From assembly GCA_947626425.1 (NCBI GenBank), contig CANQRX010000003.1, forward strand, positions 1-38,381: a stretch of 38,381 nucleotides of DNA. Reading direction: 5' to 3'. The DNA is from an uncultured Bacilli bacterium (GTDB lineage: Bacteria; Bacillota_I; Bacilli_A; RF39; UBA660). Positions 22,800-26,185 of the stretch are shown piece by piece. Every line of letters begins with the position of its first letter. The first letter of the stretch is position 1. The position numbers were made by a program, and so were the translations under genes. The notes beneath the pieces are model-generated. The model did no database searches. It had not been told where the DNA came from and was given only the letters and a program-made list of their open reading frames with translations.

Positions 22800-22830
22800 A
22801 AAAAAATATCTAGACAATAGATATTTTTTT
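22799..22830. terminator. Bidirectional terminator between convergent efp and def
   Basis: AAAAAATATCTA-GACAA-TAGATATTTTTT. Confidence 0.8.
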
Positions 22831-23380
22831 ATATTTCCCGCATTTTTTCTTGATTTTTATAAGGATTTTTCGGATCAATCCGATCGACAAATAAAATTCC
22901 GTTTAAATGATCAATTTCATGTTGAAAAGCAATTGAAACATCTTCTCTAACTCGTAAAGTTATTTCTTTGCCATTCATATCTTGTGCTTTAACAGTCATT
23001 CTGGCATATCGAGGAACTATTCCCTTAACATCCCGATTTACACTTAAGCAACCTTCGCCTTCACCAACATAAATTAATTCTTCACTATAAGAAACAATTT
23101 CCGGATTAATAACAATATAATTTTTGAAAGTTTTGTCCTCTTTTTCTTCGGCAATAACAAAATAACGTTTCATTATCCCAAGTTGAACAGCTGACATTCC
23201 CCAACCAGCTCGTAAATTATATTTTTCCCGTTCTTCATCAATTTGACTCATTTGAAGATAGACTAACATATCGTTGATAGTTTTTTGATCACTTGCTGAT
23301 AAAGGAAAGGTAACAGGCTTAGAAATTTGTCGAAGCCTTTTATCATTTTCTTCCAAAATTTTTAAATTTGGTAATTCCAT
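22829..23380 (-). CDS. def: Peptide deformylase
   Basis: GWGMSAVQLG, EGCLS, QHEIDHLNG. Confidence 0.96.
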   Translation of the reverse strand: MELPNLKILEENDKRLRQISKPVTFPLSASDQKTINDMLVYLQMSQIDEEREKYNLRAGWGMSAVQLGIMKRYFVIAEEKEDKTFKNYIVINPEIVSYSEELIYVGEGEGCLSVNRDVKGIVPRYARMTVKAQDMNGKEITLRVREDVSIAFQHEIDHLNGILFVDRIDPKNPYKNQEKMREI

Positions 23381-23496
23381 GGTAACACACCCCTTAAAAA
23401 TCTCCTTTATTGTACCATAAATTTAAAATATTAAAAGTAAAAATGATAATAAATAACTGAATTAGATGCAAAACTATCCAATTTTTCCTTAAAATG

Positions 23497-23526
23497 AAAA
23501 AAGAATAGAATGGTTGCTATTCTTTT
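23497..23526 (-). terminator. Terminator downstream of the YjcZ-like gene
   Basis: AAAAGAATAG / CTATTCTTTT inverted repeat. Confidence 0.65.
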
Positions 23527-23532
23527 AAACGA

Positions 23533-23718
23533 TTAGTTGTTGTTGTTATTGTTGCCATACCAACCTGCACCAATGATGATTACTAACAGGATGAATAGGA
23601 CAATCCAAATGGCAGCGCCGGCACCATAACCAGAAGTATATCCAGCATATCCACCAGAGTTGCAACATTGATTTGGGTATCCGCCACCATAGAATCCATT
23701 ATTTCCGTAATAATACAT
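23533..23718 (-). CDS. YjcZ/SscA-family small Gly/Tyr-rich sporulation membrane peptide
   Basis: GY-rich N-terminus followed by AIWIVLFILLVIIIG; strong RBS AAGGAGGT. Confidence 0.8.
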   Translation of the reverse strand: MYYYGNNGFYGGGYPNQCCNSGGYAGYTSGYGAGAAIWIVLFILLVIIIGAGWYGNNNNNN

Positions 23719-23902
23719 ATCTGTTACCTCCTTAATCTTTCTATTATAGTTTATTAAAATCTTTAAATTTTGACATAAAAACTTTACAGATGCTTATTAT
23801 TTAATTTTTAAAACAATTGTCTTATAAGTGTCAGATTTTCTTTTTTTATGAAATTTTTAAGACTTTTCGTTGAGAATTTGATACAATGTTTATGGTGGTA
23901 AA

Positions 23903-25069
23903 ATGAGAAAGTTATTTCGGAAAATGGACAAACCTTTGTTTTTTTTAACAATTTTATATACAATTTTAGGTTTAGTAATGGTTTTATCTGCTTCTAGTGT
24001 TTCGGCCGTTTTACGTTATAATGTCTCAACATACTATTTTTTTATTAGACAATTAATATTTGTGGTAGTTTCTTATATAATTGGCTTTGTTGTATTAAAT
24101 ATTTCAACTAATAAATATCGTTTTATAGCCCCTTTGTATCTTCTTTCAACTATTGTTTTATTAGGGTTAGTTCAAATTTTTGGTTATGTTGCTGGCGGGG
24201 CAAAGAGTTGGATCGATTTTGGCTTTTTTAATCTTCAACCAACGGAGTTTGCCAAGACCGCTTTAATTTTGTATATGGCTACTTTTTATGAAAAAAGTGT
24301 CAAAAAACAACGTCGGTTTTTGGTTAATTTAATTCCTTTAGTTTTAGGTATAATCATTTTTGGTTTGGTCGCTTTACAGCCTGATTTAGGGGGAGCAGTA
24401 ATAATCGCCGGAATTGTCTTTTTTATGTTTTTATGTATTCCTTTTCCGAAAGACAAAAAAATTAGTTTTATCAAAAAATTAGGAATTGTTTGCTTAGCTG
24501 GGGTAGTTATTTTATTGTATTCCGGTTTAGCATCTAAATTTTTAAACGAATCGCAAAGACAACGTCTTAATTTTCAAGCACCTTGTAGTCGTTATATAGA
24601 AGATACTGGGTACCAAGTTTGTAATGGCTTTATCGCGTTACATAATGGAGGATTATTCGGCGTAGGCTTAGGTAATTCAACTCAAAAGTATTTATATTTA
24701 CCAGAAGCTCACACAGACTTTATTTTTCCTATTTTAGTTGAAGAATTAGGTTTAATCGTCGGTATTTTAGTAATTTTAGGTTATTTTATAATGCTTTATC
24801 GAATTTTAAAATTAGCAAAACGAGCTCAGACCATTAAAAATCAGTTAATTTGTTATGGTAGCTTTATCTTTATTTTTCTTCATTTAGGACTTAATTTTTT
24901 AGGTATTTTTGCTTTAACTCCTTTAACAGGTGTTCCCGTTCCTTTCTTAAGTTATGGTGGGTCATTTTCCATTAATGTTATTGTTATAATGTTTGTGATT
25001 CAAAGAGTTTCCATTGAAACAAATGTCGCAATTGAAAAAAAAGAATTAGCTAAACTCTCTAGTAAATAA
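23903..25069 (+). CDS. ftsW: SEDS family peptidoglycan polymerase (FtsW/RodA/SpoVE)
   Basis: GLVMVLSAS, GAKSWI, LQPTEFAK, QPDLG, GYQ, YLPEAHTDFIF, PLTGVPVPFLSYGGS. Confidence 0.88.
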   Translation: MRKLFRKMDKPLFFLTILYTILGLVMVLSASSVSAVLRYNVSTYYFFIRQLIFVVVSYIIGFVVLNISTNKYRFIAPLYLLSTIVLLGLVQIFGYVAGGAKSWIDFGFFNLQPTEFAKTALILYMATFYEKSVKKQRRFLVNLIPLVLGIIIFGLVALQPDLGGAVIIAGIVFFMFLCIPFPKDKKISFIKKLGIVCLAGVVILLYSGLASKFLNESQRQRLNFQAPCSRYIEDTGYQVCNGFIALHNGGLFGVGLGNSTQKYLYLPEAHTDFIFPILVEELGLIVGILVILGYFIMLYRILKLAKRAQTIKNQLICYGSFIFIFLHLGLNFLGIFALTPLTGVPVPFLSYGGSFSINVIVIMFVIQRVSIETNVAIEKKELAKLSSK

Positions 25070-25121
25070 GTAATATTTTTAATTATCTAAAAAATTGTGT
25101 GGCCTGCCTTTCAAAAAATTC

Positions 25122-25150
25122 TTGACGTCTTAAATAAAAAGTGATAAGAT
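25122..25150 (+). promoter_or_regulatory. Sigma-A promoter of candidate ncRNA 1
   Basis: TTGACG-N17-TAAGAT with TG at 25142-25143; predicted +1 at G25157. Confidence 0.75.
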
Positions 25151-25156
25151 TAAGAT

Positions 25157-25412
25157 GCTTAATAGTGTGGAATGATTTTAAATGTAGGGAGTCTAAAAAC
25201 TCTGATTGTTGATTAATAATCCAATCGTTACATTTAATTGTGATTCTTTGAGTCATCACTTATTCTGCAAGGATACGGTGTCTTATCGGCTATTAAGTTA
25301 TACGTATATGTGGAGTAACGGTAAGAGGGAATTATTTATATCTGTCAATATATGTGAGACCTTATTCATCCACGGGAAATATGTTGAATGACAGTTCAAC
25401 GTATTTTTTTTT
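25157..25412 (+). ncRNA. Candidate structured ncRNA 1 (~255 nt, family not recognised)
   Basis: Promoter, nested helices beginning exactly at the predicted +1 (25157-66 with 25289-98), second long hairpin, terminator; no RBS-bearing ORF. Confidence 0.7.
25378..25412 (+). terminator. Intrinsic terminator of candidate ncRNA 1
   Basis: AATATGTTGAA-TGACAG-TTCAACGTATT followed by a T run. Confidence 0.85.
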
Positions 25413-25498
25413 GTCTAAAAAAAGGAAATTTCAATTTTTATAGAAATATATAAGTAGAAAGAAGAATAAAAATTCTTTCTTAGAAAGGAGGAACCTAT

Positions 25499-26185
25499 AT
25501 GGAAGCATTCAAAGAATTTCTTGTCGAAAAAAAAGTTTTTTGTCTTTGCGTTTTGCTTGGCATTATTTGTTTATCCTTAGGCTTTTTATATTTAAAAGAT
25601 GTCAGTGCGGAAGAATCCTTTCATTGCCCAGTAACGAGTGATAAAGTTTCAGAAAACAACGACGATGATATCGAAACTTTAGATATTATCCAAGTAGATA
25701 TAAAAGGGGCAGTGAAAGATCCTGGAGTCTATGTTTTAGATGAAGGTTCAGTCGTTAATGATTTAATATTAGCTGCTGGTGGCTTAACTAAAGACGCTGA
25801 CACAACCAACCTTAATTTAAGCAAAAAACTAGAAAACGAAATGGTTATAATTGTTTACACTAAAAAGGAAATGGAACAAAACGTTGAAAAAAACCTTACT
25901 AGTGATGCTGATATTTCGGAATCGTTAGGTAAAGATTCCATAATTGAGTCCGATAGTGAATCAAGTTCTAACAATACCACTTCCAAAACTACTAAAAAAG
26001 TTAATCTAAATACTGCTACCTTAGAAGAATTAACCACATTGCCGGGAATAGGAGAGGCCAAAGCTAAAAGTATAATTCAATATCGAAAAACTTGTGGAAA
26101 TTTTAAAGTCATCGAAGATATAAAAAACATTTCAGGTATAGGCGATTCAGTTTATGCTAAACTTGAAAAATATATCACCGTTTAA
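25499..26185 (+). CDS. comEA: Competence DNA receptor ComEA
   Basis: N-terminal TM, VDIKGAVKDPGVY (SLBB), VNLNTATLEELTTLPGIGEAKA and ISGIG (HhH). Confidence 0.95.
   Translation: MEAFKEFLVEKKVFCLCVLLGIICLSLGFLYLKDVSAEESFHCPVTSDKVSENNDDDIETLDIIQVDIKGAVKDPGVYVLDEGSVVNDLILAAGGLTKDADTTNLNLSKKLENEMVIIVYTKKEMEQNVEKNLTSDADISESLGKDSIIESDSESSSNNTTSKTTKKVNLNTATLEELTTLPGIGEAKAKSIIQYRKTCGNFKVIEDIKNISGIGDSVYAKLEKYITV

Follow-up and report, generated by a model that had tools for sequence, protein, structure and literature searches.

Bacteria have few large structured RNAs of unknown function, and every one of them has proved rewarding to study. Several were shown in 2025 to build RNA-only dimers and cages. 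Another structured RNA of the Bacillota, the raiA motif RNA, often adjoins competence genes.

With regard to how such assemblies are recognized, excerpts of Kretsch et al. (PMC12286853) take covarying palindromes of adjacent bases as the mark of between-chain pairing, which cryo-EM confirmed for OLE and GOLLD, and describe an OLE homodimer joined by kissing loops and a covarying palindromic loop (GGCC, GAUC or AGCU). A 2026 review (PMC12990946), as excerpted, reports that an intermolecular complementary P10 of 12 bp, together with pseudoknots, is a constant feature of ARRPOF dimers, and that HYER1 and HYER5 dimerise through palindromic pairing, whereas HYERs without a palindrome stay monomers.

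Here we analyse an element between ftsW and comEA in a 38,381-nt stretch of DNA from an uncultured Bacilli bacterium (the window, meaning the whole stretch at its full length). The element is very probably a real, stand-alone structured ncRNA gene. Beyond this, we consider it likely that the gene would be constitutively transcribed, as a member of a non-Rfam family with a conserved core fold, and that its product would form a homodimer and serve as a folded particle, either as a scaffold or in an RNA-only assembly.

Gene signals and strand-specific folding

The first-pass annotation had placed a promoter ahead of the element with its +1 at G25157, and a promoter scan recovered a −35/−10 layout that puts the start at about that base (Table 1). 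We examined these signals across 36 sequences, namely the window with L002–L011 and L055–L079; L039 and L044 (97.5–100% identical to L007) and 12 metagenomic copies were left out. The −10 hexamer (TAnnnT) ends exactly 6 nt ahead of the first P1 base in all 36, a −35 with at least a 4/6 match lies 16–18 nt upstream in 33, and the TG extension of the −10 is found in 28, while a run of at least five T follows the last hairpin in 34. As befits an independent sRNA gene, promoter and terminator keep fixed positions relative to the structure. Across the homologs the predicted transcript measures 252 to 391 nt. These signals, together with the absence of any Rfam match and of any conserved ORF, support the stand-alone ncRNA that had been one of the two original proposals.

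The predicted transcript (25157–25412) folds at −64.3 kcal/mol (z = −3.13), a value reached by none of 200 shuffles, whereas the reverse strand (z = −1.38) is equalled by 16 of 200. The abundance of G-U pairs had been taken as a sign of selection on RNA rather than on DNA palindromes, and folding that is significant on the forward strand and much less so on the reverse is the strand-specific signal which that argument predicts. Public sequencing runs containing window positions 25000–25600 numbered five, all of them DNA from rabbit-gut metagenomes in two studies. Further upstream, a 520-nt gap (23381–23902) separates the divergent genes def (22829–23380, − strand) and ftsW (23903, + strand); it holds short ORFs only and has no Rfam match.

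Table 1. Features of the element and its flanking genes, in window coordinates.
Feature	Position	Strand	Sequence, pairing or remark
ftsW	23903-25069	+	gene upstream of the element in the window
Sigma-70-type promoter	25122..25150	+	−35 TTGACG (25122-27), 17-nt spacer, extended −10 TG-n-TAAGAT (25142-50); promoter scan match
Predicted ncRNA transcript	25157..25412	+	256 nt, +1 to end of U run; fold z = −3.13 on this strand only
P1, 5' strand	25157..25165	+	GCUUAAUAG; pairs with 25290-25298; 9-10 bp in the window
P1b, 5' strand	25167..25174	+	GUGGAAUG; pairs with 25261-25268, 8/8
P2 domain	25178..25237	+	outer helix 25178-87/25228-37 around hairpins 25188-92/25199-203 and 25204-14/25218-26
P3 hairpin	25240..25259	+	stem 25240-44/25255-59; loop with UUGAGUC (25248-54)
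P1b, 3' strand	25261..25268	+	UAUUCUGC
P4 pseudoknot, 5' strand	25282..25288	+	CUUAUCG; pairs with 25319-25325, 7/7
P1, 3' strand	25290..25298	+	CUAUUAAGU
Loop-less palindrome, proposed dimerisation duplex	25299..25308	+	UAUACGUAUA; 5/5 self-pairs; directly 3' of P1
P5, 5' strand	25310..25313	+	GUGG; pairs with 25370-25373, 4/4
P4 pseudoknot, 3' strand	25319..25325	+	CGGUAAG
P6-P8 bulged hairpin	25326..25363	+	25326-29/25360-63, 25332-35/25354-57, 25337-41/25348-52; loop CUGUCA (25342-47)
P5, 3' strand	25370..25373	+	CCAC
Intrinsic terminator	25374..25412	+	stem 25374-88/25395-25410, 15-bp hairpin; loop UGACAG (25389-94); nine U (25404-12)
comEA	25499-26185		downstream gene in the window; comEC and holA come next

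Distribution of the RNA family

BLAST recovered the 3' two-thirds of the element from 10 congeneric genomes. R1, a covariance model of the 3' domain, matched 22 of 47 genomes of the genus, with one match per matching row, and six further genera within a 151-genome sample of the order. A second covariance model, built from 27 sequences (R2), matched 13 of 151 genomes, once each, in a sample of the family with one genome per genus. The spread is therefore patchy, the RNA being absent at the sensitivity used from 25 of the 47 genus genomes and 138 of the 151 family genomes. When applied to a sample of the class, R2 matched two genomes of this family, the window's own and one more, along with a marginal stretch of 62 nt, and nothing convincing among the 137 class-sample genomes of other families; the 62-nt match (G335, E = 0.009), from outside the family, was taken to be terminator-like and set aside.

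Scanning 185,579 species genomes for an exact pattern gave 15 matches, confined to this genus apart from five (in Mediterraneibacter, Thiomicrorhabdus, Lachnospiraceae, Eubacterium and Thermomicrobiales) that have nothing in common beyond the pattern and were put down to chance. In metagenomes, a scan yielded 11 loci, nine of them confirmed by R2 and one lying on a contig labelled human gut; R2 gave no confirmation for L087 and L092, and a reverse-strand match in L008 (E = 0.0016) was gone under a stricter threshold. Collections of phage and plasmid records contained no match to the RNA. As far as searched, the RNA family is confined to one family of small-genome gut Bacilli, whose genomes measure 0.5–1.6 Mb.

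On three metagenome contigs the RNA gene is present twice in tandem, with a distance of about 415 nt between copies (L088:4369-4921, L097:6264-6813 and L090:237-794). Copy B has lost UGACAG from its terminator loop and has UGACA in the linker after the hairpin, and sequence of the copy-B type also occurs at the end of contig L094.

A conserved core with two crossing helices

Because a full-length MAFFT alignment (A1) misaligned the variable 5' domain, the 3' domain was analysed by covariance models and P1 was located by complementarity. Covariation among the 36 sequences agrees with the original reading of the element as a structured RNA. In the 3' domain model, 94.2% of 1646 cells pair, as against 77.9% after shuffling, and 38 of 47 pairs change on both sides, although the alignment behind the counts for the nested helices was fitted to the model and so favours pairing there. 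P5 and the loop-loop helix described below were absent from the covariance model. The covariation score is 0.534, compared with 0.211 for shuffled sequences (0 of 500 shuffles reach 0.534, a count whose significance is overstated since the sequences are related) and at most 0.139 when pairing partners are slid.

One helix crosses both P1 and P5. In this pseudoknot, P4, two-sided changes reach all seven pairs and 96.4% of cells are paired, with variants such as CUUAUCAAG/CUUGAUAAG, UUGCCAAA/UUUGGCGA (L071) and CUUGUCU/AGACAAG (L079). In P1 itself, compensatory types occur at pairs 2, 3, 5, 6, 8 and 9 of the nine, including changes across the 36 sequences from C-G to G-C in 3 and from A-U to G-C in 3. 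The long-range helix P5, which encloses the bulged hairpin (25326–63) and is directly followed by the terminator, pairs in 86.1% of cells, with two-sided changes at two of its pairs (L011, for instance, has GCGA/UCGC). Six divergent members (L067, L069, L070, L073, L078 and L079) have a short local hairpin, such as GAG-N7-CUC, in place of the GUGG strand of P5. In L067 the loop of this hairpin (CAAGUA) is the complement of a UACUUG that stands where CCAC would be, and P5 may persist there as a loop-to-strand pairing.

A long bulged hairpin (25309–25374) and a terminator had been described at the 3' end, and both pair in the window. Within this region, two-sided changes affect 13 of 14 pairs of P6-P8 and 13 of 16 pairs of the terminator stem. 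Moreover, the loop of the bulged hairpin is complementary to the terminator loop over 6 bp, and in this loop-loop helix 98.6% of cells are paired and three of the six pairs show compensatory changes. Its variants are CUAUCA/UGAUAG (L068), CUGACA/UGUCAG (L069, L070 and L078), CUGAUAA/UUAUCAG (L079) and a U-G pair in L066; exceptions are one mismatch in L074 and a helix of only four contiguous pairs in L064. In every member the arms of the two hairpins are about equally long, which fits a side-by-side loop-loop contact within one molecule, though the contact could also be one between molecules. Side-by-side hairpins with such a contact resemble the lysine riboswitch. The pseudoknot P4, the loop-loop contact and the loop-less palindrome are features beyond those of the first-pass annotation.

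A variable 5' domain

All seven nested helices first proposed pair fully in the window, six of them checked base by base and the seventh bulged. The 10-bp closing helix at 25157 corresponds to P1, and the closest relatives keep it along with P1b, the three helices of the P2 domain and P3. In six close relatives P1b (columns 12-20/138-146) is retained with one G-C to A-U change, and the P2 consensus helices show two-sided changes in close relatives. Across the family, on the other hand, the P2 domain is variable, with another size and shape in other genera, where different hairpins stand between the strands of P1b.

Two of the small hairpins fare differently in the relatives. Although 25241-46/25250-55 pairs in the window, the stem variants GGGC/GCCC (L009), UGGC/GCCA (L011) and GUGA/UCAC (L008) support the outer register adopted for P3 in Table 1. 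The helix 25270-75/25279-84 pairs in the window but is not conserved: L006 has lost it, and the conserved pseudoknot P4 takes up its 3' arm. The P3 loop sequence UUGAGUC is invariant in the 11 comEA-linked sequences of group 1 (the window and L002–L011), as is TGAGTC in alignment A1.

The single-sequence minimum-energy fold lacks P1 and closes instead with a helix 25167-75/25366-74, which was rejected as specific to the window, since the relatives do not have it. We also discarded a local CACC...GGUG hairpin, whose bases in fact form P1b, and a pairing of the UUGAGUC loop with GAUUCGA that exists only in L004 and L007.

The palindrome and a possible homodimer

Directly after P1, each member carries a self-complementary segment without a loop. 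Palindromes of at least 10 nt (G-U allowed) occur at this position in 35 of 36 homologs, compared with 13.6% of 9449 control windows from the same loci, and palindromes of at least 12 nt in 28 of 36 compared with 5.1%. The homologs contain 21 distinct dyad 12-mers, and in these the five innermost pairs are complementary in 21, 21, 21, 21 and 20 of 21, the sixth in 14 of 21, counts that come from related sequences with the dyad centre chosen to maximise pairing. Each of the five innermost pairs is represented by four to six pair types, and the two innermost by five or six. The segment is thus variable in sequence and self-complementary to its very centre, as palindromic RNA homodimers are. A strict Watson-Crick palindrome extends over only 4–6 nt in 11 of the 36, where G-U pairs keep the symmetry at the RNA level, which tells against a site in DNA. 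Since the innermost bases of a loop-less dyad are unable to pair within one chain and yet are always complementary, the comparison points to a duplex of two molecules. On balance it is probable that two copies of the RNA would pair through the palindrome into a homodimer.

Thermodynamic prediction does not discriminate. Among dimers predicted by RNAcofold for 12 representatives, the palindrome is intermolecular in 10, and the minimum-energy dimer lacks it in two, one of which is the window's own RNA. The dimer ddG ranges from −7.7 to −17.3, only modestly better than the −10.2 ± 2.5 of the shuffles (eight dinucleotide shuffles for each representative): none of the eight reaches the observed value for five of the 12 representatives, while three, four and seven of eight do so for three others.

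The same gene and fold could also give a monomeric structured ncRNA, its palindrome being a small hairpin or the site of a dimeric protein and no RNA dimer forming in the cell. The near-equality of dimer and shuffle energies speaks for this, as do the 13.6% of AT-rich control windows that carry palindromes of at least 10 nt, the monomeric state of raiA, an RNA of similar size, by cryo-EM (excerpts of PMC12286853), and the palindrome of L075, which is odd in length (AUAUGC-U-GCAUAU) and could equally be a triloop hairpin. A hairpin, however, would not constrain the two innermost pairs, which are complementary in all 21 dyads, and a protein site would be expected to keep its sequence, yet the 21 dyads all differ. 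We regard the monomer as the less likely reading. Two metagenomic copies on L090 have palindromes of only 6 nt.

The tandem copies on L088 and L097 each have a different palindrome of their own, AUACCGGUAU as against GUAUAUAC or GUAUAUAUGUGUAU, so that the palindrome could be a pairing code which keeps paralogous RNAs unmixed. In its fullest form the dimer proposal would be a symmetric homodimer of an RNA of about 260 nt, joined by a covarying 10-bp duplex stacked on P1, with the terminator locked by the loop-loop helix and the palindrome acting as pairing code. Taken as a whole, this composite is tentative and, to us, somewhat short of an even prospect.

Relation to comEA

As its other proposal, the first-pass annotation had suggested an attenuator controlling read-through into comE, that is, a cis-acting leader (riboswitch or attenuator) of comEA-comEC-holA. 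The element does lie directly upstream of comEA, on the same strand, in the window and in all 10 close loci, which make up one species group; ftsW is the upstream gene in only three of those 10, the upstream gene being variable, and in the window the terminator ends 86 nt before the comEA start. However, within ~1.5 kb on either side of the element (less where a contig ends), the other 25 loci contain none of comEA, comEC, holA and ftsW. Downstream genes there encode ParB, MarR, RNase J, a cation-efflux protein, peptidase U32, DUF308, FtsK and unknown proteins, and upstream genes are equally varied, so that the conserved association with one downstream pathway that marks a cis-leader is not seen. 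In addition, the terminator loop is a conserved tertiary partner and hence part of the fold, and no conserved alternative pairing of the terminator arm was noticed among the helices of the comparative model, none of which overlaps that arm (P5 ends 0–2 nt before it), a comparison restricted to these helices. A separate promoter-like element also stands between terminator and comEA at all 11 comEA-linked loci. With unrelated downstream genes outside one species group, we hold it to be very improbable that this RNA is a comEA attenuator or other leader.

The element between terminator and comEA consists of AAAGGAAAT (25421–29), 13 nt and GAAAT (25443–47), conserved at all 11 loci. We take this stretch (25421–47) to resemble the sigma-H or ComX-type competence promoters of Bacilli. 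The same 11 loci share a 5'-UTR hairpin at about 25456-63/25473-80, ahead of the AGGAGG ribosome-binding site (25486–91).

Search against known RNA families

The RNA family is new to Rfam 15. With gathering thresholds the whole window gave no match, in keeping with the original failure to recognize a tRNA, tmRNA, RNase P, SRP, T-box or riboswitch. At E <= 10, positions 24900–25600 gave only four chance matches, to unrelated families and of at most 16.7 bits, and nine divergent members searched at E <= 1 gave nothing on the element. Among the titles and abstracts that literature searches listed, none describes this RNA; a 2021 survey with thousands of microbiome RNA candidates (PMC8040213) may include it in its supplements.

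The element could still be a very divergent member of a known family (such as OLE, raiA, 6S or ARRPOF), and two observations speak for this: the OLE RNAs of the host family shrink from ~610 to ~380 nt, and excerpts of PMC11332333 describe OLE variants of the RF39 clade that lack P7 and P8. Against it, besides the Rfam results above, the OLE model (RF01071) at E <= 1 finds nothing in the window's own genome (87% complete), and the raiA model (RF03072) finds nothing in that genome at E <= 1 or in the region at E <= 10. Seven of the 13 carrier genomes in the family sample have a full OLE elsewhere. The window's genome likewise has candidates for 6S and SRP RNA on other contigs, a 6S-like match of 44.6 bits (G000:C20:46-225; gathering cut-off 46.4) and a small SRP RNA of 54.2 bits (C1:50288-50368). 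Membership in a known family is thus highly improbable. The 6S-like match is full length and just below threshold, and is probably this genome's 6S RNA, missed by the curated cut-off.

Least credible of all is a reading without an RNA, with inverted repeats that bind a protein, or some other element at the DNA level, or else a gene for a small protein. Although two ORFs overlap the region (25206–25391, + strand, 61 aa; 25083–25259, − strand, 58 aa) and TTGACAG/CTGTCAA and the palindrome are also inverted repeats in DNA, neither ORF has a Pfam match, the longest + strand ORF varies from 11 to 72 aa (median 28, with some of just 11–14 aa) across homologs with none conserved, helices and dyad persist through G-U pairs at places where the DNA is no longer symmetric, and folding is strand-specific.

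A proposed particle and comparison with known systems

In the homodimer reading that we favour, the variable 5' domain (P1b, P2 and P3) would be closed by P1, and the conserved core would comprise P1, the pseudoknot P4, the long-range P5, the bulged hairpin docked on the terminator loop and the ~10-nt palindrome 3' of P1. Two molecules would pair via the palindrome into a symmetric homodimer, and the folded RNA particle would act through its shape, as a protein scaffold or in an RNA-only assembly. Both ends of the RNA should be protected, since the loop-loop helix would dock the terminator hairpin and P1 would bury the 5' end. A role as base-pairing regulator or as comEA leader is unlikely.

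If this is true, few natural RNA quaternary assemblies would be smaller than this one, which would occur in host-restricted gut bacteria of a reduced-genome clade that is so far uncultured. It is a much smaller candidate than those known, with unusually clear comparative evidence: two crossing helices, a terminator loop-loop contact and a dimerisation signature. At about 260 nt the RNA should be easily transcribed in vitro, making the dimer hypothesis directly testable, and the palindrome is a natural handle for compensatory-mutation tests. Adding the family to RNA family libraries would let this intergenic region be annotated.

Compared with leaders, the element has the likeness of a structured 5' element that ends in an intrinsic terminator upstream of a gene, but it lacks a conserved class of downstream gene, and its terminator hairpin is probably fixed in the fold rather than serving as a switch arm. 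Like raiA (RF03072), a structured Bacillota ncRNA of ~200 nt whose biochemical function is unknown, it is a compact folded RNA; it differs in giving no raiA model match in the region or genome, and raiA is a monomer by cryo-EM (PMC12286853, as excerpted).

ARRPOF, HYER1 and HYER5 share with the window RNA the same kind of palindromic element, which in the window RNA comes together with pseudoknots. There is no sequence or model similarity, however, and ARRPOF is plasmid-borne and the HYERs are group IIC introns, whereas the window RNA is chromosomal and its dimer is predicted from comparison.

OLE (RF01071) is, like the window RNA, a stand-alone ornate ncRNA of anaerobic Bacillota, and is present in 99 of the 151 genomes of the host family sample. 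Small genomes that commonly carry OLE fit the description of the RF39 clade in PMC11332333, in which we would place the host family. Apart from the lack of a model match, the two differ in length (~380–615 nt for OLE, ~256–390 nt for the window RNA family) and in the setting of the palindrome, which in the window RNA is a 10-nt single-stranded segment beside P1 rather than a hairpin loop. Nor are they mutually exclusive: they co-occur in seven of the 13 carrier genomes, so that the window RNA is no substitute for OLE. Within the host family, OLE matches themselves decrease from ~615 to ~380 nt, and some partial matches of ~250–310 nt cover only model positions 278–595. Examples from this range of matches are G230:C2:10798-11186, G133:C5:12168-12545, G154:C2:57162-57542 and G293:C1:63016-63268. 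The pattern suggests a stepwise reduction of OLE in these small genomes. The window RNA would belong to a kind already known, the ornate bacterial ncRNA with probable quaternary structure, of which it would be a small and unusually tractable example.
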